A DNA stretch of 64,000 nucleotides from Truepera sp. GTDB lineage: Bacteria > Deinococcota > Deinococci > Deinococcales > Trueperaceae. This document shows, piece by piece, positions 1,161 through 17,645 of this stretch (the first letter of the stretch is position 1; each line of letters begins with the position of its first letter). The position numbers and the translations under genes are program-made. The stretch spans positions 1,760,001-1,824,000 of the forward strand of contig CBDCKW010000009.1 in NCBI GenBank assembly GCA_965218435.1, written 5' to 3'. The notes beneath the pieces were generated by a model. It had not been told where the DNA came from and did not search any database. It worked only from the letters and a program-made list of their open reading frames with translations.

Positions 1161-2642
1161 TTACGGCGAGGTGTAACGCAAGACCGGTTTACGCGCCGCT
1201 TTGACCTCATCCAAACGGCGTACCGGCGTGGTGTAAGGCGCGTTTTTCAAAAAGTCCGGGTCGGCTTCGGCCCGTTTTAATATGTCCGCCATGACTGCAA
1301 CAAAGGCGTCCATCGTCTCCAAGCTCTCCGTCTCAGTCGGCTCGACCATCATCGCTTCTTTGACGACCAGCGGAAAATACATCGTCATCGGGTGCATCCC
1401 GTAGTCTAAGAGTGCCTTAGCGATGTCCAAAGTCTTCATCCCTCTGGGCGGCTGCGCCACAAATTCGTGCATGTTGATGCGGTCAAACGCGGTCTTGAAG
1501 CCGACTTCTTGCAGCTTGACACGCAGATAGTTTGCGTTCAAAACGGCCCGCTCCGAAATCTGCGCCAGCCCGTCGCGGCCCAGTGCCCGAATATAGGTAT
1601 ACGCCCGCACCAAGTTGCCGAAGTTCCCATGAAACGAACGCATCCGCCCGATCGAGTACGGTTGGTCGTAGTCGAAGGCGAAGTGGTCACCCTCTTTTTT
1701 GATGATCGGTGAGGGTAGGAAATCCCGTAGATGCGCTTTGACCCCAATCGGGCCGGTGCCGGGGCCACCGCCGCCGTGGGGCGTGGTAAACGTCTTATGC
1801 AGATTGAGGTGTACCACATCGAAACCCATATCGCCGGGGCGAGCGCGGCCCACGATGGCGTTCGCGTTCGCGCCGTCGTAGTAGAGCTGTGCGCCGACCT
1901 CGTGCGCGAGGTGGGCGATTTCTAAAATGTTTGTCTCGAACAGCCCCAACGTGTTCGGGTTCGTGAGCATGATCGCCGCAACGTCCGGGCCGAGCACGGC
2001 TTTAAGGGCGTCCAAGTCAACCTCGCCGTTAGGGGCTGTCGCCACCTCTTTGACGTCGTACCCGACCATCGTTGCGGTGGCCGGGTTGGTGCCGTGCGCC
2101 GCGTCCGGGACGATGACGATGCGGCGCTGCTCGCCCTCGCCGTTGTGCTCGTGGTAGGCCCGGATCATCAAAATCCCGGCGAGTTCGCCGTGGGCACCCG
2201 CCGCTGGTTGCAAGGTGATGGCGTCCATCCCGGTGATCTCGGCGAGGTCGTATTGCAGATTATAAAGCAGTTCTAACGCGCCCTGCACGGCGTCCGGGTC
2301 GGCGTTCGGGTGCACGTCAGCGAAGAGTTTGGCGGTCTCTTCGTTGACTTTAGGGTTGTATTTCATGGTGCACGAGCCGAGCGGGTAGAAGTTGCCGTCA
2401 ATAGAGAACTGCCGGTGCGCGAGCTGGGTATAGTGGCGGACGAGTTCCAACTCCGACACTTCGGGCAGTTTAGGCGGCGCGGCGCGGAGGTGTTCAGCGC
2501 CCAGAAGACTTTCTAAGCTCTCCCCCACCGGTTTGGGCGGATACGCCGCGCGGCGGCCCGGTTGTGAGCGTTCAAAGATCAGCGGGAAGTCACCGGCTGT
2601 GTTTTCCCGAGCTAAAATTGGGCGTTCTTCAAGTTTAGTCAT
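1161..2642 (-). CDS. gcvPB: Glycine dehydrogenase (decarboxylating) subunit 2
   Basis: [19 protein letters not shown] and [18 protein letters not shown] (PLP lysine) motifs. Confidence 0.97.
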
Positions 2643-3975
2643 GGGCGACCTCGAGCCTACGCTCTAAAACTTCTGCCAAAGCGTCCGTCAGGAGCGTCAT
2701 ATCTTCTGCTGTCGTGAGTTCAGTTGCGGAGAAAAGTGCCGCGTCCCCAAGGCCGTAAGTTTTGGGAACGGGCACAGCGGCAGCGACGCCCGCTTCGGCG
2801 AGCGCGTGACGCAACTCGTCCGCAGGGAGCGGTAAACGGGCGGCAAACTCGTTAAAAAAGGGTTTTGCGGTGAGGGGCTCGAGGCCAATCTCTCTAAGTT
2901 TACCCGCTAAGGTGTGCGCGTTCTGCACACTTTTAGTTGCGACGTCGGTTAAACCTTGCGGCCCGAGCGCGGCGAGGTTTACGGCGGCCATCAGCGCGGT
3001 GAGCTGGTGGTTCGAGCAGATATTCGACTTGGCTTTCGAGCGGCGGATGTGCTGCTCTCTGGCCTGCAGCGTCAGGACAAACGCCCGTTTGCCGTCCCGG
3101 TCCGTTGTCTCGCCGACGATACGCCCCGGCAACTGCCGTAAAAGCGGCTCAGCCACGACCATAAACCCGAAGTGCGGCCCGCCAAAACTGACCGGATTAC
3201 CGACCGTCTGCCCGTCCCCGACGGCGATATCCGCGCCGTAATCACCGGGCGCGGTGAGAACACCGAGCGTTAGGGGGTCACAGACGGCGACGAAAAGAGC
3301 ACCGGCTGCGTGCGCGGCGTCAGCAAGCTTCGGCATCGCTTCTAAGTAGCCTAAAGAGTTGGGATTTTGGACGATGAGACAAGCCGCGTCCGCCACGTCG
3401 CCCGGTTCAGGCGTGCTCAGCTCAGTGAGGGCGATTTCGACAATCTCAATGTCTAGAGGATGCGCGTAGGTCGCTAACACCTCCCGCGACTCAGGATGCA
3501 CTCCTTGACTTACCACAACCTTGCGCCGCCCGGTCTGCCGCACGGCAAGAAGTGCCGCCTCTGCGACCGCTGACGCCCCGTCGTACATCGAGGCGTTGGA
3601 GACCGGCAGCCCGGTCAGCTCACTCATCATCGTCTGGTACTCGAAGGTCGCCTGCAACATCCCCTGTGAGACCTCAGGTTGATACGGCGTGTAGGCCGTG
3701 ACGAACTCACTCTGCAGCGCCAGGTGCAGCGTCACCGAGGGGATAAAGTGCTCTTGCAGACCGCCGCCTAAAAAGTTGGCTTGTGGGGTTTTGTTTTTTG
3801 CGGCGAGTGAGCGCAAATGCCGGAGCAAACTCACTTCATCTAAACCTTCGGGAATGTCTAACTCAGGGATTTTGAGCGACTTGGGCAGGTCGGCGAACAG
3901 CTCATCAATGCTTTCGACGCCGATAGTCTCGAGCGCCCGTTCGATATCTTCCGGTGTATGCGGCAAGTAGTTCAC
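2635..3975 (-). CDS. gcvPA: Glycine dehydrogenase (decarboxylating) subunit 1
   Basis: [23 protein letters not shown] and [10 protein letters not shown] motifs. Confidence 0.97.
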
Positions 3976-3982
3976 AGGTCGT

Positions 3983-4366
3983 TCACCCTGCCTCGGCGAT
4001 TTCTTGATAGGCGTCAGCGTCTAAGAGCTTCTCGAGTTCTCCGGGGTCCGACACGCGCAGCTTAAACATCCAACCGCCCTCAAAAGGTGCTGAATTGATG
4101 GTTTCGGGAGCGTCCTCTAAGGCGCTGTTGACCTCGACGACTTCACCCGAAACCGGCGCGTAGATGTCCGAGGCGGTTTTGACCGACTCGACCACAGCAA
4201 CGGCAGTTCCTGCCGTGACCGTTTGGCCGACACTGGGGAGTTCGACGAACACCACGTCTCCGAGCTGGTCTTGGGCAAAGTCGGTAATGCCGACGGTGAG
4301 GGTGTCGCCCTCGAGCCGTGACCACTCGTGCGACGCACTATATTTGAGGGCTTCAGGTAGCTGCAT
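3983..4366 (-). CDS. gcvH: Glycine cleavage system H protein
   Basis: [20 protein letters not shown] (lipoyl Lys); RBS GAGGAG. Confidence 0.97.
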
Positions 4367-5243: not shown

Positions 5244-5510
5244 ATGGACAGAGCTAATGATCTCGGACCGGCAACTCTCGGCACCTTAAACGGCACCGGT
5301 TTTATGAACCGTCATCCCACCCAAGCTAGTGGTTACGTTCAGGGCGAGGGCGTTTTTATCGTCGCTGAAACGACCCGCGAGGCGGTCGAGGCGCTGATGG
5401 GCGAAGAGCTCGACTATGTAGGGCCGACCGAAGACGGCAACACCCGGGTCGCGCAGTGCCATATCGTCTCCGCCGAGGACTTTCCTACTCTCACATTTTC
5501 AAAAAGCTAA
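5244..5510 (+). CDS. Hypothetical protein
   Basis: 88-aa ORF with host-like codon usage filling the gap. Confidence 0.55.
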   Translation: MDRANDLGPATLGTLNGTGFMNRHPTQASGYVQGEGVFIVAETTREAVEALMGEELDYVGPTEDGNTRVAQCHIVSAEDFPTLTFSKS

Positions 5511-5583
5511 CCAAGACCCACCGTGTAAATCCGCCGCCGGGCTGTTACGGCGAACTGCTCGGCGGCCACAGGCTGAGGCCATT

Positions 5584-5895
5584 CTAGTGCTGCTTTTTAG
5601 CCCAGGTAAGAAACCGCTGCACCTCGGGTTCGGCTAACAGTGCCGCCCGCGTGTTGAGCCTCTTGCCAAGCTCGTTTTCGCTGTAGCTGCGGTGCAGCTG
5701 CCGGTGACACAAGCGGCAGAGCATCAGCCCACAGCCGCTGAGCTCGGCGCGACTAAAGCGCCGCGTGTACCAACCTCGGCGGTGAACACGTTTGGGAATA
5801 AGGTGGTGAAAAGTCAGCGGCTCTTCGCGTCCGCACAGTTCGCAGTAGCGGCAGCTGGCGCGGCGCGGCCCGAAATCAGTAGTTGGCGACGTCAC
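5584..5895 (-). CDS. Small HNH-like zinc-binding protein (YisB-like)
   Basis: CELCGR...TFHHLIPK...LCRLCHRQLH; TAAACT 6 nt before GTG. Confidence 0.8.
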   Translation of the reverse strand: MTSPTTDFGPRRASCRYCELCGREEPLTFHHLIPKRVHRRGWYTRRFSRAELSGCGLMLCRLCHRQLHRSYSENELGKRLNTRAALLAEPEVQRFLTWAKKQH

Positions 5896-6048: not shown

Positions 6049-6077
6049 TTGAACGAACATTCCTCAACGATTATACT
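6049..6077 (+). promoter_or_regulatory. Sigma70-type promoter of the DUF305-nuo unit
   Basis: TTGAAC-17 bp-TATACT. Confidence 0.7.
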
Positions 6078-6086
6078 TTAGCCTAA

Positions 6087-6101
6087 CCCACCCCAGGTGG
6101 G
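6087..6101. promoter_or_regulatory. C/G-tract palindrome, putative CsoR/RcnR-type operator
   Basis: CCCACC-cca-GGTGGG just downstream of the -10. Confidence 0.4.
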
Positions 6102-6122
6102 GAGAGTAAAGGGAGACAACCT

Positions 6123-6728
6123 ATGAAGCCAGTTGCCGCAACGTATTTGCTACTCAGCACTTTTTTATTCGGTGCTTTTGGCTTAGCACAACCTGCGCCG
6201 CCAACAGGACCACCCAACCAGCACCCACAGGGCGCGATGAATATGAGCAAAGCGCCAATTGGCAGTGAGCTGGACTTCATTCAGGGGATGATCCCGCATC
6301 ATCAGGAGGCCGTAGACAGCGCCCTGGTGATCGAAAAACACAGTGAGCACGCCCAACTTCGCGCCTTTGCCGGAGCTGTCGTTGGGGTTCAGCAGCGTCA
6401 GATCAGCGAAATGCGGGGATGGCTCCGGGCTTGGTATCCGAAACAAGCAAAAGCGGCGTCACCTTACCTACCGATGATGCGCACTCTGCCGAACGCCACG
6501 CCGGACGAAGCCGACCGCGCCTTTATCGAAGACATGATGACGCATCACGAGATGGCGATAGCGATGGCTCGAGAGTTTCTAGCCGGGGACTTCAAAAAGC
6601 ATCCCAAAGCCGAGGCGCTCGCAAGAGACATTATGTCTACCCAAGCCGCCGAAGTCGGTACCTTACGCGGCTGGTTGCGACGTTGGTACGGCGTCAAAGT
6701 AGACGCCACTACAAACACACACGGCTAG
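6123..6728 (+). CDS. Secreted DUF305 protein (CopM-like ferritin fold)
   Basis: Signal peptide; two repeats FIQGMIPHHQEAV and FIEDMMTHHEMAIAMA. Confidence 0.9.
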   Translation: MKPVAATYLLLSTFLFGAFGLAQPAPPTGPPNQHPQGAMNMSKAPIGSELDFIQGMIPHHQEAVDSALVIEKHSEHAQLRAFAGAVVGVQQRQISEMRGWLRAWYPKQAKAASPYLPMMRTLPNATPDEADRAFIEDMMTHHEMAIAMAREFLAGDFKKHPKAEALARDIMSTQAAEVGTLRGWLRRWYGVKVDATTNTHG

Positions 6729-6824
6729 GCACACTAGAGATAGGTTTTGATAGGTCTTGCAAGGGGCAGGGCTCGAGCCAACTGGGGGTTTATGAACGGG
6801 CAAGTCAGACCACCGGTAAAGGTG

Positions 6825-6872
6825 TTCTTAACAGTGTTGTTCACGCTATTCTTCACACTGGTTTTCACACTA
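6825..6872 (+). repeat. 4 x 12-bp degenerate tandem repeat
   Basis: ttcttaacagtg/ttgttcacgcta/ttcttcacactg/gttttcacacta. Confidence 0.7.
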
Positions 6873-6883
6873 AGGGAAAAAGC

Positions 6884-7201
6884 ATGACCGTTAACAGCTA
6901 CGCCGTGGTAGGGCTGCTCGCCCTTATCGCCGCCGGGCTCGCGCTCCTCGGCGCAGCTTTCTGGAGACCTAAAGCCAAACTCTTAAAAGCGCCCGCAGCG
7001 TGGGCACAGTTTCGCTTCGGTTACGTCGTCTACGCGCTGATCTTTCTCTCATTCGACATGGAGATGATCTACATGTACCCGTGGGCGGTGGTGTTCGTGG
7101 AACGGGGCCTCGAGGCATTTTTAGACATGCTCGTCTTTATCGCCATTCTTTCTGCGGGCATCGCTTACGCCTGGGGGATGGGGGGGCTCGAGTGGGAGTA
7201 G
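6884..7201 (+). CDS. nuoA: NADH-quinone oxidoreductase subunit A-like (short loop)
   Basis: ALIFLSFDMEMIYMYPWA and C-terminal YAW..GGLEWE; start ATG 6884 within the longer ORF. Confidence 0.9.
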   Translation: MTVNSYAVVGLLALIAAGLALLGAAFWRPKAKLLKAPAAWAQFRFGYVVYALIFLSFDMEMIYMYPWAVVFVERGLEAFLDMLVFIAILSAGIAYAWGMGGLEWE

Positions 7202-8091
7202 TCACGGGTGCTCTTTTTGTCCTCGCAACGCTGCTCGTCGGGGGCTTGGGAACGATGGGGCTCGAGCACCTTATGCGCCGCCGCGCCGAGTTAGGTCCGG
7301 CTACGACGCCGAGTATTCGGGAAGATGTCAAACTCCTTCAGGCTGACCGCTGGCTCTATCCGGCGGGGACGGTTTCAGCTTTGCTGGGCATCTTTTTTGC
7401 GCTAGTCGTGATTCCTTTCGGCCCCGGTCTTATCGCTCAGGACATCGGTATCGGGGCGTTTTACTTTATCGTCGTGCTGGACTTTGTGGTACTCGGGGTC
7501 GCGCTCACGGGTTGGGGCACAAATATACCGGACGCCGTAGACGCCTACTACCGCATCACCGCGCAGCTCGTCGCCTACGTCGTCCCACTGGGTCTCGCTT
7601 ATGTCGGGGCCATCATGATGGCTGAGTCTCTGTCTATTGTCACCATCGTTGAGCGGCAGAACAGCTTGTGGTTTGTCTTCCTGCAACCCATCGGTTTCTT
7701 GCTCTACCTCGTAACCGGATTGATGCAGGCTTACCGTGCGCCCTTTATGGAACCGTTTTCTAAGTTCATCGGAGGTGGCGTGCTCGGCGCTGTCGGTGGC
7801 TGGCAGGCGCTCGTATGGCGTTTTGCGCTCGCCGGTCTGCTCTTTGCCATTGCCGCGATGGGGGCTGTACTTTACTTGGGCGGCCCGCAGGGGCCGTGGC
7901 TACCCGCGCCGGTTTGGATGCTCGTTAAAACGTTTGGGCTGATGGCCTTGATGCTCGGCCTGGGGCGACTCGTCAAACCTTTAAGCACCGCGCAGATGCT
8001 CCAACTCTCGTGGCGCATCCTGATTCCTATTGGTCTGGTCAATGTGTTGGTCGTCGGCGGGCTGATTCTTTTAGGCGTAGGTCCCACATGA
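7192..8091 (+). CDS. nuoH: NADH-quinone oxidoreductase subunit H-like (divergent)
   Basis: VIPFG, RxxAQLVAY, RAPF, LYLGG, LSWRILIP motifs; GTG 7192 overlaps the nuoA end. Confidence 0.85.
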   Translation: MGVVTGALFVLATLLVGGLGTMGLEHLMRRRAELGPATTPSIREDVKLLQADRWLYPAGTVSALLGIFFALVVIPFGPGLIAQDIGIGAFYFIVVLDFVVLGVALTGWGTNIPDAVDAYYRITAQLVAYVVPLGLAYVGAIMMAESLSIVTIVERQNSLWFVFLQPIGFLLYLVTGLMQAYRAPFMEPFSKFIGGGVLGAVGGWQALVWRFALAGLLFAIAAMGAVLYLGGPQGPWLPAPVWMLVKTFGLMALMLGLGRLVKPLSTAQMLQLSWRILIPIGLVNVLVVGGLILLGVGPT

Positions 8092-8960
8092 TTCTAGGCG
8101 CGACCGCACAGGTGTTCGCCTTTGCTCTCTTGTCACTGATCGCCATTTTGGGGGCGCTCGGCATGGCGACGACGATGAGCATGTTTCGGAGCGGTATCTT
8201 CCTGATGGCGTCGTTTATCGGCGTGTCGGGGCTCTTTATCCTCCTCTCCGCCGACCTTTTGGGACTGTTACAAATCATGATGTATATCGGCGGGATGCTG
8301 GTGATGGTGCTTTTTATGGTGCTCTTAATGCATGACCCCGGCGGCAGCATGATGGCGGGGATGGACATGGCCCCGGTTGAAAACTTCTTTAGCCGAGGAC
8401 TGCTCCCCAAAGACGAAGGAGAGGTTGAGGCGGCTCGAGTCGATAACTTAGGTCAAAATGCTGAAGACGAAAGTGACGAGCAGCAAGGTTATCAGCATAG
8501 AAATCATCAGCATGAAGGTCATGACATATCAGCTGACGGGCACGGTAATGGGGATAGTCAGCAAGAGCACGAACATAGCGATATGAACCACGACGACATG
8601 GACATGGGCGATATGGACATGTCTATGGTGACGCCCGTCCGTTCTTACGCGGCGTGGCTCGGGCTCGGTACGGGCGCACTGCTCGTTTTACTCCTCTTGT
8701 TGCGCCCCGCTTGGCCGGTCGCGGACGCACTCCCTGATCCTGACTCGGCGCAGCAGGTCGGCAACCTTTTGATGAGCAAATACATGATGGCGTTCGAGGG
8801 CGCGGGCTTGCTTATCTTGGTCGGTATCTTCGGCGCGGTCTACATCGCACGGCCTGACCGTCATCCGTCGGCGAAGGGACGTGAGGTGCATGTCGGGCAA
8901 GACGAAATGCCTAGTGAACTCGAGGATGACACCTTGAAACCGCTGAGGGACAACGCATGA
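8088..8960 (+). CDS. nuoJ: NADH-quinone oxidoreductase subunit J-like with His/Met-rich insert
   Basis: QIMMYIGGMLV (TM3) and GNLLMSKYMMAFE (TM5); ATGA overlap with nuoH. Confidence 0.88.
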   Translation: MILGATAQVFAFALLSLIAILGALGMATTMSMFRSGIFLMASFIGVSGLFILLSADLLGLLQIMMYIGGMLVMVLFMVLLMHDPGGSMMAGMDMAPVENFFSRGLLPKDEGEVEAARVDNLGQNAEDESDEQQGYQHRNHQHEGHDISADGHGNGDSQQEHEHSDMNHDDMDMGDMDMSMVTPVRSYAAWLGLGTGALLVLLLLLRPAWPVADALPDPDSAQQVGNLLMSKYMMAFEGAGLLILVGIFGAVYIARPDRHPSAKGREVHVGQDEMPSELEDDTLKPLRDNA

Positions 8961-9268
8961 TTCTCCCCTTGACAGCTTTTTTAAGCGTTGCTGCCATCCT
9001 CTTCGGCATCGGTGTCTACACCGTCATCGCGCAGCGTTCAGCCGTGATGATTCTGATGGGCGTCGAGGTCCTCTTAAACGCCGTCGGCCTTAACATCGTG
9101 GCCTTCTGGCGTTTTGTCGCCCCTTCAGACTACTCCGGACAGATTTTTCTGATCATCATCGTGACGTTAGGTGCGGTCGAGATGGGCATTGGGCTCGCCA
9201 TTATGATGATGCTCTACCGCAACCGGCAGACCGCACAGGTTGACGATTTTACGGAATTAAAAGGGTGA
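8957..9268 (+). CDS. nuoK: NADH-quinone oxidoreductase subunit K
   Basis: MGVEVLLNA, GQIF, GAVEMGIGLA; both conserved Glu retained. Confidence 0.93.
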   Translation: MILPLTAFLSVAAILFGIGVYTVIAQRSAVMILMGVEVLLNAVGLNIVAFWRFVAPSDYSGQIFLIIIVTLGAVEMGIGLAIMMMLYRNRQTAQVDDFTELKG

Positions 9269-11190
9269 CGGCGCTCCTGATCGCTGTGCCGCTTATGCCC
9301 TTATTAGCTGCACTTGTGATTCCTCTAGGGCAACGTCTGCCAAGCGGCTGGGTGAGCGCGGGCGCGACGGGCGTTTCATTGGCACTTTTACTCGCCCTGT
9401 TCGGGTCGCACCTCAGCATGACGGCGACATGGTTAGGGGTCGGCACTTACACCCTCACAGTTGGGCTCAGCCTGGACCCGCTTTCATATCTGCTGGCGCT
9501 CTTAGTCGCAGGCGTTGGTTTCCTCGTGGGGGTGTACGCAGTCGGGTATATGGCCGATGAACAAGGCAAGCCGCGTTTTTACAGCACCTTGTCATTTTTT
9601 ATCGGAGCGATGCTGACCCTCGTCCTCAGCAATTCGCTGGTGCTGCTGTTCGCCGCTTGGGAGAGTGTCGGGCTGGCGTCGTATCTGCTGATTGGCTTCT
9701 GGTATACCCAAACTGACGCGAAAGAAGCGGCGCGTAAAGCCTTCCTGATGACCCGCTTAGGCGATCTTGGCTTGCTGCTCGGCTGGTTACTCCTGCTCCT
9801 AACGGTTGGCACAACGGATATTCAGACCGTTTTAGGTGCGGTGGGAACAGGTTTGCCTGCAGGCATTGCCACACTCGCGGCTTTTCTCTTGCTTTTGGGA
9901 GCACTCGGTAAGAGCGCACAGCTTCCACTTACAGCTTGGCTCCCTGACGCGATGGCTGGGCCGACACCCGTGTCGGCGCTGATCCACTCGGCCACGATGG
10001 TCGCGGCGGGTGTGTATCTGCTGCTGCGCTTATTCCCACTCTACGAAGCGGCTCCGGGCATCCTCACCGTTGTGCTCTGGTTGGGCGCGCTTACGGCACT
10101 TTTTGCGGCGCTCGTCGCTACGGTGCAAACCGACCTTAAGCGCGTTTTGGCGTGGTCTACGGTGTCACAGCTCGGTGAGATGTTTTTTGCAATCGGTTTG
10201 GGCAGCGCATTTGCCGCAGCCTTTCATTTGGCAATGCACGCACTGTTTAAGTCGGTACTGTTTCTCACGGCGGGTGCGGTCGAGCATATCGTCGGCGGTT
10301 ACGACCTGCGGAAGATGGGCGGGTTGTGGCGACAGCTGCCCCTCACAGCTGGGGTGTTTGCCGCAGCGGGCTTGACGCTGGCGGGGTTTCCGCCTTTTTC
10401 TGCGTTTTGGAGTGAAGAGGCGATTTTGGCTCGAGCCGCGTCTGTTAGCCCATTTGCTGGGGCATTTTTCTTGCTGCTTATCTTTCTTGCCGGGGTGTAT
10501 ATCAGTCGGGCGGGAGTCGCAGCGTTTCTAAGTTGGCCGGGTGCGCCGAAACCAACCGAGAAAAAACCGAGCGTGTGGCTGGCTCTACCGATGCTTGTTC
10601 TGGCTGTGCTTACACTCGGCGCGGGCTGGGTATCGAAGGGGCCGCTCGAGTCCTTCCTCCCCTTTCCTCAACCGCCGGAAGCTCACACGACCTGGACGCT
10701 CTGGGCTGTCGCCGCAAGTGTTTTAGGGCTCGTCTTTGGAAGTTGGCGAACGTTGCAACATGGCCTCGTACCGACTTTTGGCAGGTTTCCGGTGGGGTTG
10801 GGGCACGGCCTCAACGTTCTGACCTCTACGCCCGTGACGATAGTGCATACGGTTTCGGCAGGTGTAAACGGGCTCGAGCACACCCTTGATGCTTTCGTCA
10901 GACAGCTTGCAAGCGGCACTCTTATGCTAACGGGCAGCCTAAACCGTGCTGAGAGTAGCTTTGATAGGGGGGCTCGAGGTTTCGCGTCTATAACTCTAAG
11001 AACTGCTACCGGAACCGAGAAAGCTGAACAAAGGGGATTCTCAAGAGGTGGCGACGCTTTCGCACGCCTCTTCAGCCGTTCCGGGCAGCGGCTACGCACC
11101 ACTGAGAGCGGCAAACTTTATCTTTATACGCTTGTCCTGTTCGTCTGGGTCGCAGGGGTCGTCGTCGGAGGCGTGCTGCTGTGGTGGTAA
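9265..11190 (+). CDS. nuoL: NADH-quinone oxidoreductase subunit L / MrpA-like antiporter subunit
   Basis: WESVGLASYLLIGFW, GKSAQLPL..WLPDAMAGPTPVSALIHSATMV. Confidence 0.93.
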   Translation: MTALLIAVPLMPLLAALVIPLGQRLPSGWVSAGATGVSLALLLALFGSHLSMTATWLGVGTYTLTVGLSLDPLSYLLALLVAGVGFLVGVYAVGYMADEQGKPRFYSTLSFFIGAMLTLVLSNSLVLLFAAWESVGLASYLLIGFWYTQTDAKEAARKAFLMTRLGDLGLLLGWLLLLLTVGTTDIQTVLGAVGTGLPAGIATLAAFLLLLGALGKSAQLPLTAWLPDAMAGPTPVSALIHSATMVAAGVYLLLRLFPLYEAAPGILTVVLWLGALTALFAALVATVQTDLKRVLAWSTVSQLGEMFFAIGLGSAFAAAFHLAMHALFKSVLFLTAGAVEHIVGGYDLRKMGGLWRQLPLTAGVFAAAGLTLAGFPPFSAFWSEEAILARAASVSPFAGAFFLLLIFLAGVYISRAGVAAFLSWPGAPKPTEKKPSVWLALPMLVLAVLTLGAGWVSKGPLESFLPFPQPPEAHTTWTLWAVAASVLGLVFGSWRTLQHGLVPTFGRFPVGLGHGLNVLTSTPVTIVHTVSAGVNGLEHTLDAFVRQLASGTLMLTGSLNRAESSFDRGARGFASITLRTATGTEKAEQRGFSRGGDAFARLFSRSGQRLRTTESGKLYLYTLVLFVWVAGVVVGGVLLWW

Positions 11191-11221
11191 CGAAATCTAA
11201 AACGCTCATTGCGGGGGCATC

Positions 11222-12691
11222 ATGCTGAGTATCACCATTTTTTTACCGCTCCTGACGGGGCTCGTCGTCCTAGCCTTACCCAATGTCCGGGCAATACGCT
11301 GGACGGCCCTCGCCGGGTCGCTGCTGACGCTCCTTTTCACGCTTATTTTGTGGGCGGGCTATAACCCAACCGGTTCACAGCTTCAGTGGCACGCGGCGGC
11401 TCCGTGGATTCCAAGTATTGGGGCGAGTTACGACTTGGCGGTTACCGGTCTTTCGCTCCCACTTATGGTTCTCACCGCGCTGCTGCTCAGCCTGACGATG
11501 GTTTATGTGTTGCCCGAGCACGACCGGGCGAAAGCGCACGCGTTTTTGTTCCTGCTGATGGGCACAGGGTTACTCGGTCTGTTCGGGGCTCGAGACCTGC
11601 TCCTCTTCTACCTTTTTTTCGAGGTTGCCCTCGTCCCGATGTACTTTATCGTCGGCATCTGGGGGGGCGAGAACCGGCGGTACGCCGCGCTCAAGTTCTT
11701 TCTCTATACCCGCGTCGGCAGCCTCGCCATGCTGCTGAGCTTTTTGGCACTCTATCTGGCAAGCGGCCGCAGCTTTTCACTCGCTGAGATCAGCACAGCG
11801 CAACCCTTTGCGGGTTCAGGGACCGGATTTTGGGTCTTTTTGGGCTTACTGCTCGGTTTCGGCGTAAAACTGCCGACGGTGCCGCTCCACAACTGGCTCC
11901 CCGATGCCCACGTCGAAGCGCCGACCGAGGGCAGCGTGATGCTCGCCGGAATTCAGCTCAAGATGGGCGCGTACGGCTTTTTAGCCATTATGCTGCCAAC
12001 CTTGCCCGACACGGTGCGGCAATACGCCTGGCTCCTGATGCTCTTGGCGCTGGTGTCGCTCGTTTACGGCGCGCTAGCGGCGCTCGCGCAGAGCGACCTC
12101 AAACGGCTGATCGCCTACACCTCGGTCAATCACATGGGTTTTGTGCTTCTAGGGGTGGCGGTGTGGGGGCTCTCGAGTGACCCCGGCGTCCGGCAGCTCG
12201 CCCTGAGCGGCGCGGTGTTGCAGACCATCAGCCACGGGCTTTTGACGGGCGGGATGTTCTTTCTGGCAGGGATTTTGCAGCATCAGGCAGGCACACGGGA
12301 GCTGGCGCGTTTTGGCGGACTACTGGGAAAGGTGCCGGGATACAGCGGTCTTTTGGGCCTCTTGGCGTTTGGTTCGTTGGGATTACCGGGGCTTTCGGGT
12401 TTCGTCGCCGAGTTTCAGGTCATCGGCGCAACCTTGTCGGTCAATATCTGGTTCGCGCTGGTCGCGGTTTTGGGGCTGATCATCTCGACGGCGCTCTACC
12501 TCAAGGTGTTGACTGCTCTGCTGATGGGCACGCCGCCTGACGATATGCCCACGGTGCGTGAGCTGAATCCGCGTGAGGCGACCGCTGTGATTCCGCTGGC
12601 TGTTCTGTCGCTGACGATTGGGTTGCTACCGGGACCATTTTTACGCGTGTTGGGGACAACTGTTCGCGCTCTAGCTCGGCTCGGAAGCTAG
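11222..12691 (+). CDS. nuoM: NADH-quinone oxidoreductase subunit M
   Basis: FFEVALVPMY, KLPTVPLHNWLPDAHVEAPT, KMGAYG, GFVAEF. Confidence 0.94.
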   Translation: MLSITIFLPLLTGLVVLALPNVRAIRWTALAGSLLTLLFTLILWAGYNPTGSQLQWHAAAPWIPSIGASYDLAVTGLSLPLMVLTALLLSLTMVYVLPEHDRAKAHAFLFLLMGTGLLGLFGARDLLLFYLFFEVALVPMYFIVGIWGGENRRYAALKFFLYTRVGSLAMLLSFLALYLASGRSFSLAEISTAQPFAGSGTGFWVFLGLLLGFGVKLPTVPLHNWLPDAHVEAPTEGSVMLAGIQLKMGAYGFLAIMLPTLPDTVRQYAWLLMLLALVSLVYGALAALAQSDLKRLIAYTSVNHMGFVLLGVAVWGLSSDPGVRQLALSGAVLQTISHGLLTGGMFFLAGILQHQAGTRELARFGGLLGKVPGYSGLLGLLAFGSLGLPGLSGFVAEFQVIGATLSVNIWFALVAVLGLIISTALYLKVLTALLMGTPPDDMPTVRELNPREATAVIPLAVLSLTIGLLPGPFLRVLGTTVRALARLGS

Positions 12692-12695
12692 CGAG

Positions 12696-14135
12696 ATGGA
12701 GTGCATGGACCTCTGGGCCATCGTCCCAGAGCTGATCTTAGCTGGTTTCGCGCTGCTACTCGTCCCGGTTGCCGGTCTGAGCAAAGGACGCGGGCAAAAC
12801 GTCGTGGTGTTTTTAGCGGTGTGCGGGCTTATCGCGGCGACTGTGTTTAGCGTACGGATGCTCCTCTGGAGAGACCAAGCCGTCTTTTGCGGGACCTACG
12901 CCGTAGACGGTTTCGGTACGGTGTTTAAGCTTCTGATTTTGTTCGGGGCACTCCTGTCACTTTTGGCTATCGGCGCACATTTCCGGGGGACGGGCAAAGA
13001 AGGACACGCCGCCGTCGCCTTGCTCTTTTCGACCCTGGGCGGGGTGTTGGCGGCCTCGAGCCTTGACTTAGGTCTCATCGTGCTCTTTTTACAGCTGCTC
13101 AGCATGGCCTCGTACATCTTAGTGGCGCTGGTACGAACCAATAGGGAGGCAAACGAGGCGGCGCTCAAATACTTTATCTACGGGGCGGTGGCGCTGGCGG
13201 TGATGGCTTACGGGCTTTCGTTTTTGTACGGCCTCACTGGAAGCCTCTCACTACCGGCAATTGGAGGAAGCTTGCGCAGTGCCGATGGCGTCTGGGTGGC
13301 GCTCGCCTTTGGTTTTGTCTTGATCGGCTACGCCTTTGAGATTACGGCGGTGCCCTTTCACTTCTGGGCACCCGACGTATACACCGGCGCTTCTGCGCCC
13401 GTCACCGGGTTTTTGTCGGTTGTACCTAAACTGGCGGGCTTTGCGGCGCTCTTGCGGTTTCTCCTCGTCGCGCTCCCCGGCGGTATGGCGGCGTGGCCGC
13501 TCGCGGTGGCGATTTTGGCCGCTCTCACCATGACGCTCGGCAATCTAGTTGCCTTGCGGCAAACACGGCTCAAACGGCTGTTGGCTTACTCGAGCATCGC
13601 CCAAGCGGGGTATGTGCTGATGGCCGCGGCCGTTTCTGAGCGCGTACCCTCAGCTCTGGGCGCCGCTGGCTACTACCTGCTCGCGTACTCCCTGATGAAT
13701 CTCGGAGCGTTCGTGGTGGCGGCGCAGCTCGAGCGCCTCACCGGGAGCGACGAATTACGGGGCTTGCGGGGTCTGGGCCAACGCTCGCCGCTGGCGGCTG
13801 TGGGCCTCACCTTGTCCCTTTTATCCCTGGCGGGTATTCCGCCGCTCGCAGGGTTTGCCGGGAAGGTACTCCTCTTAGACGTCACCCTCTCCGGTGGTCT
13901 AACCTGGCTGGCCGTCGTCGGTGTATTGAACTTCGCTGTGGCGCTCTACTACTACCTCTTGCCGATTGTTGAGATGTACCTGCGTGCGCCGGAAACCACA
14001 GACCGTGTTCCTAATTGGCCGGGGTATCTCGTGGCGCTCGGCGTCAGCGTTTTCGGCACGCTTTTGATCGGTATCTTGCCAAGCACCGTACTCAGCGTGA
14101 CGCAGCACCTCTCGAGGGTTTTTAACAAAGGCTAA
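12696..14135 (+). CDS. nuoN: NADH-quinone oxidoreductase subunit N
   Basis: EAALKYF, PFHFWAPDVYTGA, KRLLAYSSIAQAGY, GIPPLAGFAGK. Confidence 0.93.
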   Translation: MECMDLWAIVPELILAGFALLLVPVAGLSKGRGQNVVVFLAVCGLIAATVFSVRMLLWRDQAVFCGTYAVDGFGTVFKLLILFGALLSLLAIGAHFRGTGKEGHAAVALLFSTLGGVLAASSLDLGLIVLFLQLLSMASYILVALVRTNREANEAALKYFIYGAVALAVMAYGLSFLYGLTGSLSLPAIGGSLRSADGVWVALAFGFVLIGYAFEITAVPFHFWAPDVYTGASAPVTGFLSVVPKLAGFAALLRFLLVALPGGMAAWPLAVAILAALTMTLGNLVALRQTRLKRLLAYSSIAQAGYVLMAAAVSERVPSALGAAGYYLLAYSLMNLGAFVVAAQLERLTGSDELRGLRGLGQRSPLAAVGLTLSLLSLAGIPPLAGFAGKVLLLDVTLSGGLTWLAVVGVLNFAVALYYYLLPIVEMYLRAPETTDRVPNWPGYLVALGVSVFGTLLIGILPSTVLSVTQHLSRVFNKG

Positions 14136-14319: not shown

Positions 14320-14460
14320 ATGACCCCCGCCGCGCCGATCGCCGAATGGGAGCAAGTGACTACTGAGAATGTCGCCACTCAAAGCCACTTTTCAAGCTTC
14401 TATTGTCGTTTGACTAAATCAAAAGCTTGTATCTATCTGGCTTGTAAGGGTGCCTTGTGA
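14320..14460 (+). CDS. Putative 46-aa leaderless ORF overlapping the R-M gene start
   Basis: TAAACT 5 nt before ATG; open to TGA forming a GTGA overlap with 14457. Confidence 0.35.
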   Translation: MTPAAPIAEWEQVTTENVATQSHFSSFYCRLTKSKACIYLACKGAL

Positions 14461-17400
14461 CCTTTGACGAGTACCAAGCCAGCCTCGAGGCCGACTTTAA
14501 GCGAGGCAACGCTACCGAACACACCTATAGGGGCACCTTAAAAGCGTTGCTCGAGTCTAAGTTTCCGGGCATCGTCGCCACGAACGAACCCAAACGCATT
14601 TCTGCAGGCGCACCCGATTACGTCATCTCTCGAGGCGAAACCCCGCTGGGTTACATCGAAGCTAAAGACTTAGGCCGTTTAGACAACCCGACCGACCGGG
14701 AAAAAGAGCAGCTGGGGCGCTACCTCGGCAGTTTAGGCAACCTCATCTATACGGACTACTTAGAGTTTCGCTGGTTTGTCGAAGGACAGCACCGCTTGAC
14801 CGCACGGCTGGCAAGTATCAACGGCAAAGGGTTACGGGTAGAGCCTGACGGCGCACAAAACCTCGAGATGCTACTCAAGGGCTTTTTAGGCGTCACAGCC
14901 CCAACGATTAAGAGCCCGTCAGCCCTAGCCCGCAAGATGGCCGCGTTAGCCCAACAGATACGGCACACCATCTTAGGGGCGTTTAACGCCGAAGACTTAA
15001 CAGACGACCATCCCGACCCGCTGCACGACCAGTACCAGGCGTTCCGGGAAGTCTTACTCTCTGATTTGACCCCCACACAGTTTGCCGACATGTACGCCCA
15101 GACCATCACCTACGGGATGTTTGCTGCCCGCACGAGTCCGAACTTTACGCCGCCCTTTACCCGGTACAAAGCAGCGTATGACATCCCGAAGACCAATCCC
15201 TTTTTACGCACCGTGTTTCGGCAGATGGTCGGGCCGGAACTCGAGTCCAGTGTGGACTGGATTGTAGACGATTTAGTCAACCTCTTAGCGCACGCTGATA
15301 TTGGCGCTATCTTGCAAGACTTTGGCACCCGGACTCGTACTGAAGACCCGGTAGTCCATTTTTACGAAACGTTCCTAGCCGCGTATGACCCCAAGATGCG
15401 CGAGGCGAGAGGCGTCTACTACACCCCTGAGCCGGTGGTCTCTTACATCGTCAGAAGTGTTGACCATATCCTTAAAAAAGACTTTGGGCTTAGAGACGGG
15501 TTAGCCGACACCTCAAAAGTAAGAGTGATAGACCCTGAACAGCGCAGCCAAAAAGACCGTAAGACCAAAGACGTGCACAAGGTGCAAATCCTCGACCCGG
15601 CGACCGGCACGGCGACGTTTTTACATGCGGTCATAGACCAAATCCACAGCACCATTGTCGGACAGACCGGCGGGAACAAGGGGCTGTGGTCGGGGTACGT
15701 GAAGAATCACCTGTTGCCCCGGTTACACGGGTTTGAGTTATTGATGGCTCCCTATACCGTGGCGCATATGAAGCTGGGGTTGCAGCTCGCTGAACTCGGT
15801 TATGACTTCGACTCTAACGAACGGCTCAAGATTTACCTGACGAACGCTTTAGAAGAGGCGCACCAGTTTCCGAGTTTGCCGCTGTTTGGGCAGGCCATCG
15901 CCAGAGAGAGCCAAGAGGCGGGGCAGGTCAAGCAAGATGCGCCGGTGATGGTGGTGCTAGGGAACCCGCCGTATTCCTATGCGTCTTCAAACAACGGTGA
16001 ATGGATTAGCAAAATCATCAGAGACTACTACACTGTAGACGGGCAACCGCTAGGTGAACGCAACCCTAGAGGCTTGCAAGACGACTATGTAAAGTTCCTT
16101 CGCTTTTCTCAATGGCGCATTGAGCAGACGGGCTACGGCGTTCTGGGGTTTGTTACTGCTCACGGCTATCTGGACAACCCGACCTTTAGAGGGATGCGTC
16201 AAAGCTTGATGAATACCTTCGATGACCTTTATGTGCTTGACCTTCACGGCAATAGCAATAAGAAGGAGCGCACCCCGGACGGCGGCAAAGACGAAAATGT
16301 GTTCGACATCATGCAAGGTGTGTCCATCGGCATCTTTATCAAAAAGCCGAGCAGCTTAGAGAAGCGGGTATACAAGGCTGACCTTTACGGCTCGAGGGCA
16401 GACAAGTACAAAACCTTGTGGGAAAGCGACATTTCAAAAACTGAGTGGAAAGAGGTAAATCCGCAAACACCTTTTTACCTTTTCGCTTCCCAACAAGAAG
16501 ACATCTGGGACGAATACAAAGTATGGAACAAAATCACTGAGATAATGCTTACCCACTCAGTTGGCATCTTGACCTCAAGAGATGAACTAACAATTAAGTT
16601 CAGCCAAGAAGAGGTACTTCGCACAGTGAAAGATTTTATTAAGCTCTCCGAGGAAGATGTTCGACGCACATTCAATCTTCCAGAAGACAGTAGGGACTGG
16701 AAAATCTCTTATGCTCAAGAAGATTTGAGAAATAGCAAGATAAGTGATGCGAACGTGCTGCCCATATCCTATCGGCCATTTGATACGAAATATACCTACT
16801 TCACGGGAAAGTCTAGAGGCTTTCATAGCACTCCAAGAACGAATGTGATGAAACACATGCGGCGTGATAACCTTGCGCTGCTAACGAGCAGATTGACTAA
16901 GGGTGAGAAATTTGCTCATGCCTTGGCTACAAAGCATTTATCTGAGAAGATTTTACTTTCTGCTAAAACCTCAAATAATAGCTTTCATTTTCCACTCTAC
17001 CTCTACCCAGACACCTCTAACCTCTTTGACATCGGCGTGCGCCGCCCCAACCTCGCACCGGAGTTCACCGCAGAGTTTGCCGAGAAGGTGGGGCTCGAGT
17101 TTATAGGAGACGGCCAAGGCGACCTGACAAGTACCTTTGGCCCTGAAGACGTGTTTCACTACATCTACGCGGTGTTTCACGCGCCCAGCTACCGGGAACG
17201 CTACGCCGAATTTCTTAAGATTGACTTTCCACGGGTGCCGCTCACGAGTAGCTTGGGGCTATTCCGCACGCTCACTGCTTACGGTGAAACACTGGTAGCA
17301 CTGCACCTCATGGAACGAGTCGGCAGTCCGATCAGCAGCTACCCGGTAGACGGGGACAACATCGTAGACAAGGTGAGCTTTTCTGAGAACGAAGACGGTA

Positions 17401-17645
17401 AGACGGGGCGCGTCTACCTCAACCAGACGCAATACTTTGATGGGGTGCCGGTAAAGGTTTGGAACTTTTACGTGGGTGGGTATCAGGTGTGTCAAAAGTG
17501 GCTTAAAGACCGCAAGGGGCGCACGCTTTCGTATGACGACCTGCGGCACTACGGCTTTATCGTTTCGGCACTGTTTGAAACCATCGGCGTGATGGGTGAG
17601 GTTGATACGGCGATAGAAGGGGCTGGAGGGTGGCCTTTAGCTTAG
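14457..17645 (+). CDS. Single-chain restriction-modification enzyme (type IIG / ISP-like; nuclease + N6-adenine MTase + TRD)
   Basis: N-terminal PD...IEAK nuclease motif, GVYYTPEPVV, LDPATGTATFL (SAM), GNPPY (catalytic), C-terminal GGYQVCQKWLKDRK; no helicase domain. Confidence 0.9.
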   Translation: MTFDEYQASLEADFKRGNATEHTYRGTLKALLESKFPGIVATNEPKRISAGAPDYVISRGETPLGYIEAKDLGRLDNPTDREKEQLGRYLGSLGNLIYTDYLEFRWFVEGQHRLTARLASINGKGLRVEPDGAQNLEMLLKGFLGVTAPTIKSPSALARKMAALAQQIRHTILGAFNAEDLTDDHPDPLHDQYQAFREVLLSDLTPTQFADMYAQTITYGMFAARTSPNFTPPFTRYKAAYDIPKTNPFLRTVFRQMVGPELESSVDWIVDDLVNLLAHADIGAILQDFGTRTRTEDPVVHFYETFLAAYDPKMREARGVYYTPEPVVSYIVRSVDHILKKDFGLRDGLADTSKVRVIDPEQRSQKDRKTKDVHKVQILDPATGTATFLHAVIDQIHSTIVGQTGGNKGLWSGYVKNHLLPRLHGFELLMAPYTVAHMKLGLQLAELGYDFDSNERLKIYLTNALEEAHQFPSLPLFGQAIARESQEAGQVKQDAPVMVVLGNPPYSYASSNNGEWISKIIRDYYTVDGQPLGERNPRGLQDDYVKFLRFSQWRIEQTGYGVLGFVTAHGYLDNPTFRGMRQSLMNTFDDLYVLDLHGNSNKKERTPDGGKDENVFDIMQGVSIGIFIKKPSSLEKRVYKADLYGSRADKYKTLWESDISKTEWKEVNPQTPFYLFASQQEDIWDEYKVWNKITEIMLTHSVGILTSRDELTIKFSQEEVLRTVKDFIKLSEEDVRRTFNLPEDSRDWKISYAQEDLRNSKISDANVLPISYRPFDTKYTYFTGKSRGFHSTPRTNVMKHMRRDNLALLTSRLTKGEKFAHALATKHLSEKILLSAKTSNNSFHFPLYLYPDTSNLFDIGVRRPNLAPEFTAEFAEKVGLEFIGDGQGDLTSTFGPEDVFHYIYAVFHAPSYRERYAEFLKIDFPRVPLTSSLGLFRTLTAYGETLVALHLMERVGSPISSYPVDGDNIVDKVSFSENEDGKTGRVYLNQTQYFDGVPVKVWNFYVGGYQVCQKWLKDRKGRTLSYDDLRHYGFIVSALFETIGVMGEVDTAIEGAGGWPLA

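Follow-up and report, generated by a model that had tools for sequence, protein, structure and literature searches.

A complex I membrane-arm operon led by copM in Truepera sp.: a candidate redox-free copper(I) exporter

A 64,000-nucleotide stretch of a Truepera sp. genome (contig CBDCKW010000009.1, positions 1,760,001 to 1,824,000; hereafter the window) carries an operon in which copM, a gene for a DUF305 protein, precedes genes for the seven membrane-arm subunits of complex I, in the order nuoA-H-J-K-L-M-N. From comparison of this seven-gene cassette with its relatives and with canonical Nuo proteins, we propose that its seven subunits form a secondary transporter that descends from the membrane arm of complex I and operates without redox chemistry, and that would export Cu(I), and possibly also Ag(I), at the expense of the proton motive force (pmf) through a coupling like that of Mrp antiporters. 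We put the probability of this reading at roughly 0.58.

The open reading frame (ORF) list, together with Pfam and NCBIfam profiles, gave eight intact plus-strand genes (Table 1). Genes overlap from nuoA to nuoL, by 10 nt at nuoA/nuoH and by 4 nt at each of nuoH/nuoJ, nuoJ/nuoK and nuoK/nuoL, and there is therefore no space for nuoB–G or nuoI. Overlaps and ORF calls agree with an earlier note on this DNA, which had described a packed set of seven intact genes from which B, C, D, E, F, G and I are absent. Two further claims of that note also held: that the leading gene belongs to the CopM family and that NuoJ has a His/Met insert. The CopM protein scores 96.1 bits against the NF049983 cut-off of 90, matches PF03713, and has conserved M/HH motifs matching the DUF305 four-helix domain family; it is the sole strong DUF305 match in the host genome, and its signal peptide was judged by eye only. 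The window NuoJ insert comprises 98 residues, with 8 His, 10 Met and 25 Asp/Glu. NuoK, NuoL, NuoM and NuoN each score above their NCBIfam Nuo cut-offs and NuoA, NuoH and NuoJ far below theirs, so that the divergent part of the cassette is A/H/J. In the same scoring the antiporter subunits lie closer to NuoL/M/N than to MrpA/D, and Pfam and NCBIfam scans found no MrpE/F/G-like ORF in the operon. A scan for terminator-like sites, itself at chance level, found none in the copM–nuoA interval or where the operon ends.

The family proteins have lost the interface through which complex I receives electrons. As controls we used canonical Nuo proteins of the host, of the relatives' genomes and of 76 metagenome loci, an unbalanced sample of bacteria, and NuoH residues are numbered by alignment with Escherichia coli NuoH. 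R46 is present in 0/31 family sequences versus 42/44 controls, D63 in 1/31 versus 43/44, E71 in 4/31 versus 44/44, E157 in 0/31 versus 43/44, and both E228 and the Glu of transmembrane helix 5 (TM5) in 0/31 versus 44/44. D213, E216, E218 and a C-terminal R-x-R-x-D motif are also lost; over the quinone-cavity and E-channel set (R46, E71, E157, D213, E216/218/228 and R291), counts range from 0–4 of 31 in the family to 37–44 of 44 in controls. In E. coli, NuoH loops contact NuoB, NuoCD and NuoI, and mutation of R46, E71 or E228 leaves almost no activity (PMC9696053). About 14 residues are deleted after TM1 of NuoH, shortening the amphipathic loop, and the NuoA TM1–2 loop with its YE(C/S)G motif is deleted in 27/27 family sequences and present in 23/23 controls. 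The window NuoA keeps D58 and E60, equivalents of NuoA D79 and E81, and has new residues M59, M61, M64, D81 and M82; those of the window NuoH are D97, M142/143, M178, Q179 and E187. Its predicted structure (predicted template modelling score, pTM, 0.82; TM-score 0.85 to E. coli NuoH) indicates that the NuoH fold is retained. Judged by alignment, then, the electron-input interface is gone and what is left is a redox-free membrane arm, and the redox uncoupling that the earlier note had proposed gains its support from this family-wide loss of peripheral-arm and quinone contacts in NuoH and NuoA.

The gene set alone is not diagnostic, because 17 of the 76 control loci hold membrane-only A-H-J-K-L-M-M-N operons that lack B/C/D/I and keep canonical NuoA/NuoH motifs (L084, L087, L093, L122, L128, L149, L152 and ten more; those displayed lie mostly beside ATP synthase genes). 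These are split housekeeping operons, which we take to encode the two-NuoM complexes of Chloroflexota, and they are a trap for reasoning from gene content. The absence of B/C/D/I, from which the earlier note had argued, is not in itself proof of redox uncoupling; by our alignments it is the residue changes, not the gene set, that set the family apart.

The cassette could instead supply a second membrane arm on which the host NuoBCDI(EFG), or another redox module, docks for redox-coupled pumping under copper stress. In favour of this, the cassette retains the full set of seven membrane subunits along with the NuoH fold, operons can be split and still have canonical residues, and a sister clade described below has a NuoD-like gene. 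Yet nearly all conserved charged residues of the NuoH quinone cavity and peripheral-arm contacts are lost family-wide along with the NuoA loop, no redox gene is conserved among family neighbours in the flanking-gene scans, and the NuoJ insert presumably lies, by complex I topology, on the cytoplasmic side, at the docking face. We regard docking as very improbable. The host genome (9 contigs, 100% complete, 4.8 Mb) has a separate complete nuoA-N operon at C9:3.390-3.405 Mb, so that the cassette is not its sole nuoAHJKLMN set with BCDI encoded elsewhere; by tblastn, B, C and D matched only in the full operon, and NuoI there and at one weak, ferredoxin-level site.

On gene order and phylogeny, the cassette is a distinct and conserved multi-phylum family. 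A NuoJ search of GTDB genomes yielded 40 loci from Deinococcota, Alpha-, Beta- and delta-proteobacteria, Chloroflexota, Actinomycetota, Cyanobacteria, Calditrichota and Vulcanimicrobiota. All seven genes stand in order in 31 of them, the other nine being cut by contig ends, and no match to B/C/D/E/F/G/I was found in any of the 40, searched up to 10 kb around. Two loci share one genome; 36 of the 39 relative genomes also contain a NuoH at E<1e-100 against Pfam, a result that indicates, without proving, a canonical nuo operon. In a NuoN tree built by a quick method (29 family rows and 29 sampled from 70 controls), the family occupies one side of a single branch (Shimodaira–Hasegawa-like approximate likelihood ratio test 100, stem 0.91), the one clade that the earlier note had anticipated for AHJKLMN-only loci. 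The result is the same in a concatenated H-K-M-N FastTree, where members mostly cluster by phylum, so recent cross-phylum transfer is unsupported; the G+C content of the cassette, 0.55–0.62 against 0.57 for the genome, likewise gives no compositional sign of recent transfer. The distribution is patchy (11/364 Deinococcota genomes; 1/5 other genomes of the window's genus). Three plasmids carry the cassette, and on the Rhodopseudomonas plasmid pBAL398.3 a DUF305 gene lies directly before nuoA inside a metal-efflux island. Two Deinococcota genomes, G080 and G104, hold two copies each (L205, L207, L209 and L210), every copy beside a DUF326 gene. Decay of an extra nuo operon left by duplication might also give low scores for NuoA, NuoH and NuoJ against canonical models and the apparent frameshifts seen in L004, L039 and L211; but the window ORFs are all intact, family identity is about 50–90% across many phyla and the new residues are near-invariant. 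Conservation of this kind largely refutes decay, to which we give almost no weight.

The residues gained are chiefly methionines. Columns with at least 88% Met number 5 in the family versus 0 in controls for NuoA, 5 versus 0 for NuoH, 16 versus 1 for NuoJ and 3 versus 1 for NuoK; the antiporter subunits show no such gain (4 versus 6 for NuoL, 5 versus 3 for NuoM, 4 versus 2 for NuoN). Conserved Leu columns are also commoner in the family, because it is the tighter group, whereas the Met gain is confined to A/H/J/K. NuoA M59 and M61 occur in 27/27 family sequences versus 0/23 controls, NuoK M76 in 26/26 versus 0/36 and NuoH M178 in 30/31 versus 0/44. The methionines surround the central-axis residues in NuoA (D58-M59-E60-M61-x-x-M64) and NuoJ (M64-M65-Y66...M73...M77, with the Y59 equivalent kept); in NuoK, M31, M34 and M76 flank E37 and E75, the retained equivalents of E36 and E72, and NuoH has M178-Q179. 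NuoK has no His at the positions of the MrpC His pair, where E37 and E75 stand instead. The NuoJ query patterns were themselves Met-rich, a possible search bias; the NuoA and NuoJ motifs are also present in 11/11 loci found through NuoH or NuoN. The NuoJ insert is largely disordered in a single-chain model (predicted local distance difference test <50 at residues 126–182) that is poor overall (pTM 0.30) and was used for helix positions and disorder only. Across the family it spans 38–235 residues, with 0–21 His and 6–35 Met (30/34 rows, those with both anchors matched).

By alignment, the proton-axis lysines of NuoL, NuoM and NuoN are largely retained. The Glu5/Lys7, Lys/His8, Lys/Glu12 axis is complete in NuoM, lacks K399 in NuoL, and in NuoN is altered at E133/K217 with K247/K395 kept. 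The window NuoM keeps E144, K234, K265 and E407 and has new E236, Q245 and R164; the window NuoL keeps E144, K229, H254 and K342, has Glu for K399 and a new E305. K399 of NuoL, with D400 a proposed proton exit (PMC9271201), is found in 0/39 sequences, with Glu in its place in 32/39. Among 120 database homologues of NuoN, E133 is Gln in 119 and K217 is Glu in 118, and K247 is kept in all 120 and K395 in 118. We verified the NuoN numbering against the mutagenesis primers of PMC13073174, in which K247 and K395 of E. coli NuoN are essential for pumping, E133A is silent and K217A lowers electron transfer, not pumping. A His-to-Gln change at NuoN 303 was dropped as a family marker, being absent from the family-specific losses.

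The operon is preceded by a putative copper-sensor (CsoR) site that it has in common with the host copA-csoR genes. The feature starts at 6049 with the −35 element of a sigma70-like promoter match; the scan gave 3 matches in the region versus 2.7 by chance, and only the position of the match is informative. Just downstream lies the predicted operator CCCACCCCAGGTGGGG, the reverse complement of which equals, by eye, 16 consecutive nucleotides of the Thermus thermophilus CsoR site given in PMC10318464. CsoR operators are G/C-tract pseudopalindromes (PMC3902906), and the window combines a C-tract/G-tract pseudopalindrome at the promoter with a cognate CsoR gene in the genome. The pattern CCCACC-N3-GGTGGG, derived from the window site alone, occurs 3 times in 4.8 Mb, and one of the other two occurrences is a near-identical operator copy in the host copA-csoR divergon (L198, C9:3703570), between copA and csoR. 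A tighter pattern, set after both sites were known, gave 2 matches versus 0.065 expected, and a looser definition 21 overlapping positions on C9. The host's lone copZ (C9:3847145-3847315) showed no CsoR-type operator in its upstream sequence. The best PDB match of the host CsoR is 3AAI, which we take to be T. thermophilus CsoR. At L204 the same motif stands about 50–60 bp before nuoA, without copM there, and CsoR-like sites occur within 1 kb upstream at 6/51 loci (the window and the sister locus L214 counted) versus 0/20 controls.

Copper genes lie within 6 kb of 28/50 family loci versus 0/37 controls (by lineage, 11/26 versus 0/37), a count that required at least 3 kb of flank, dropping 4/54 family and 40/77 control loci, and that is biased toward the family, as family loci supplied the reference proteins and the controls had less flanking sequence (6.5 versus 8.9 kb). 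Pfam scans of 210 flanking ORFs found CopZ, CsoR, P-type ATPases, multicopper oxidases, CusF, CopCD, DUF326, DUF411 and DUF305, and unrelated neighbours too; copZ-csoR stands directly before nuoA in L004 and L038. Of the copper connection that the earlier note had suggested, the expected enrichment near copper genes was borne out, and the link to copper stands on the operator, the neighbourhoods and the Met-rich A/J/K/H core; the transport, including which way it runs and which substrate it carries, we infer. As separate observations, a Deinococcus plasmid has bacteriorhodopsin-family and PQQ beta-propeller genes between DUF305 and copZ-csoR-nuoA (L004:5698-7900), and unannotated membrane protein genes, conserved in the window's close relatives, lie between csoR and nuoA (L003:6272-7363, L075:874-2514, L078:2330-3966), with no Pfam match for the two tested. 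In three delta-proteobacterial loci (L019:34-2334, L022:7349-8725, L029:6883-8265) the cassette follows rhodanese/metallo-beta-lactamase and sulfur-transport genes, not copper genes; these loci possibly have a different substrate or regulator.

Neighbours of this kind raise the question whether a soft substrate other than copper is carried (Ag, Cd, Hg, or a metal-thiol or sulfur species), whether substrates are mixed, or whether copper is imported and delivered to cuproenzymes. Rhodanese and sulfur-transport genes adjoin L019, L022 and L025, a CzcA/DmeF island surrounds the pBAL398.3 cassette, and cupredoxin and cytochrome c genes neighbour L020. The ligands of the host CsoR are Cys/His/His, with His, not Cys, as the fourth ligand, and CsoR sensors of that kind are less selective. 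On the other hand, most neighbours are resistance genes specific to copper (multicopper oxidase, CusF, CopCD, DUF326, CopM), and control by CsoR means that the genes are induced when the metal is in excess, as suits export and not import; we consider these alternatives unlikely.

A somewhat stronger competitor, though still a doubtful one, is an Mrp-like Na+/K+-H+ antiporter or pH/pmf regulator that is induced by copper, its Met/His parts sensing or buffering the metal. The cassette shares superfamily and coupling geometry with Mrp, in which protons and cations are coupled at the counterparts of NuoJ, NuoK and NuoN-TM5 (PMC7419157), the site at which the family is remodelled. Penn and Jensen interpreted a seven-gene partial NDH-1 in Salinispora as a Na+/H+ pump gained by horizontal transfer (PMC3314556), genes for Na+/H+ and Na+/Ca2+ exchangers surround L032, L039, L040 and L041, and the added acidic axis residues (NuoN E215, NuoL E384/E305, NuoM E236, NuoH D97) suit a hard cation. 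Against it, the host has a separate MrpA/MrpD-like locus (C9:244-249 kb), the cassette has no MrpE/F/G-like genes, and an in-membrane thioether enrichment limited to A/J/K/H is not needed for Na+ transport.

If Cu(I) is exported, excess Cu(I) would release CsoR and induce copM-nuo together with copA. The cytoplasmic His/Met insert of NuoJ would gather Cu(I), perhaps from CopZ, and the ion would move along the Met sites of NuoJ/K/A/H, at the position of cation-proton coupling in Mrp. Protons would enter through NuoL/M/N, opposite to respiration, and the entry of several of them for each Cu(I) could drive uphill export. Three proton-conducting modules would make sense given the high energetic cost of moving a tightly buffered cation out of a cell whose interior is negative. 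In the periplasm, CopM would take up the copper; CopM of Synechocystis is periplasmic and binds Cu(I) tightly, with a dissociation constant of about 3e-16 (PMC4335983). The fuller version of this scheme, in which a complex I arm runs in reverse as a multi-proton/Cu(I) antiporter, its E-channel rebuilt as a methionine relay after a stepwise origin through a redox-dead NuoD intermediate, we hold to be an even bet.

That intermediate is suggested by two actinobacterial loci, L213 and L214, with the order nuoA-X-H-J-K-L-M-N. X matches PF00346 (NuoD) above cut-off over a short stretch (E=4e-10 and 5e-7), and the pair is sister to the family in FastTree, a placement of two rows with biased composition. 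They have NuoA M59/61/64 and NuoJ M32/65/73/77/229/233 in common with the family and keep NuoN K217 and NuoL K399; L214 has copA and a CsoR-type site upstream. As these loci with a degenerate NuoD hold the methionines, the Met gain may predate complete loss of the peripheral arm, an order of events drawn from sequence. Inspection by eye hinted at a remnant of NuoB in the extra gene, which was unsupported (E=4.5).

The gene set is already in print, in the accessible parts of the papers without a copper-export function. The Salinispora reading is repeated for Kocuria and Streptomyces (PMC6002675, PMC6676996, PMC8622039), the Kocuria paper separately recording extra copD/czcD genes, and Noc0474-0481 of N. 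oceani are tabulated as 'C I-membrane arm' (PMC3772326). These operons, which we compared with the window family by their published descriptions, are likewise membrane-only, extra to a full operon and patchy. They were read as marine or osmotic adaptation or as forward complex I, and the text available holds no residue analysis or copper link. The published actinobacterial order is nuoA-hypothetical-H-J-K-L-M-N, which L213 and L214 match; the window has no gene between nuoA and nuoH. In the literature searched, mostly outside subscription journals, we found no copper transport link or residue changes for membrane-only nuo operons, and no copper transporter from the complex I/Mrp superfamily; nuo is unmentioned in PMC13707694.

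Several observations weigh against copper export. CsoR-like sites are missing at 45/51 loci, and the hosts of most family loci would use other regulators. No copper gene lies within 6 kb in 15/26 lineage groups, and some loci adjoin rhodanese/sulfur-transport, Na+/H+ or Na+/Ca2+ exchanger, or ArsR/Acr3-like genes. The NuoJ insert shrinks to as few as 38 residues with 0–1 His in four loci, the host also has a CopA ATPase, and the continuous path that the Met of A/J/K/H would line is placed by complex I topology. In N. oceani the membrane-arm operon was down 2-12-fold with ammonium, and its authors interpreted it as forward complex I (PMC3772326).

Immediately 3′ of the cassette is a Type ISP restriction-modification gene (14457-17645), in the region of which G+C content falls to 0.447 (16001-17000); this stretch may be an insertion hotspot. 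On the 5′ side are two small ORFs without Pfam matches (5244-5895), the one at 5584-5895 (−) having CxxC and H-H motifs and looking HNH nuclease-like, and beyond them, on the minus strand at 1161-4366, ordinary genes of glycine cleavage, which from their sequences look like gcvH, gcvPA and gcvPB.

Table 1. Coordinates of the operon features in the window and of the extra gene in the sister loci.
Feature	Position	Strand	Basis
sigma70-like promoter match TTGAAC-17-TATACT	6049..6077	+	9/12 consensus
CsoR-type operator (predicted) CCCACCCCAGGTGGGG	6087..6102	.	9 nt past −10, 20 nt before copM ATG
copM / DUF305, putative exported Met/His copper-binding protein, 201 aa	6123..6728	+	PF03713 E=7e-35; NF049983
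nuoA-like, 105 aa	6884..7201	+	Pfam; alignment
nuoH-like, 299 aa	7192..8091	+	alignment; predicted structure
nuoJ-like, 290 aa	8088..8960	+	Pfam; alignment
NuoJ His/Met/acidic insert between TM3 and TM4, residues 83-180	8334..8627	+	alignment; structure model
nuoK-like, 103 aa	8957..9268	+	Pfam; alignment
nuoL-like, 641 aa	9265..11190	+	NCBIfam; alignment
nuoM-like, 489 aa	11222..12691	+	NCBIfam; alignment
nuoN-like, 479 aa	12696..14135	+	NCBIfam; alignment
X, degenerate NuoD with His/Asp-rich linker	L213:13735-15195	−	PF00346
X, degenerate NuoD with His/Asp-rich linker	L214:4689-6062	+	PF00346

Should the cassette export Cu(I), it would be a multi-phylum, partly plasmid-borne copper resistance now annotated 'NADH-quinone oxidoreductase', and the 'marine adaptation' nuo operons of actinobacteria would invite re-reading. 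Whatever its substrate, the cassette would be a natural redox-free complex I membrane arm and a new family of the complex I/Mrp superfamily, a categorically new transporter class if the substrate is Cu(I). Such an arm would make it directly testable whether ions move without quinone chemistry, and would let the roles of the NuoN E133/K217 pair and of NuoL K399 be asked.

Like complex I, the cassette has seven membrane subunits in canonical order, the NuoH fold, the central lysines of NuoL/M/N, and the equivalents of NuoK E36/E72, NuoA D79/E81 and NuoJ Y59. Complex I differs in having peripheral subunits and the quinone-cavity, E-channel and docking residues of NuoH and NuoA, all lost here: no NuoB/C/D/I is encoded with the arm, and the sole host set lies in the full operon. 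Particular to the cassette are NuoN E133Q/K217E, NuoL K399E, the Met-rich A/J/K/H, the His/Met insert and the CsoR-type operator. CopM/copMRS of Synechocystis has a CopM-family protein in common with the operon; here that protein leads a nuo-derived operon with a CsoR-type operator. Ctr1 is a methionine-relay Cu(I) transporter. CusA, of the resistance-nodulation-division (RND) class, also has a methionine relay, with proton-driven export (PMC8092243); the proposed Met-lined path resembles both by analogy only, the folds being unrelated. With Mrp (CPA3) the cassette shares NuoL/M/N-type subunits without redox chemistry, but it has NuoA and NuoH, three antiporter-like subunits and no MrpE/F/G, and its NuoK carries two Glu in place of the MrpC His pair that coordinates the cation in Mrp (PMC7419157). 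By these defining features the cassette appears to be neither complex I nor Mrp, and its mechanism is probably Mrp-like, the cation being copper.

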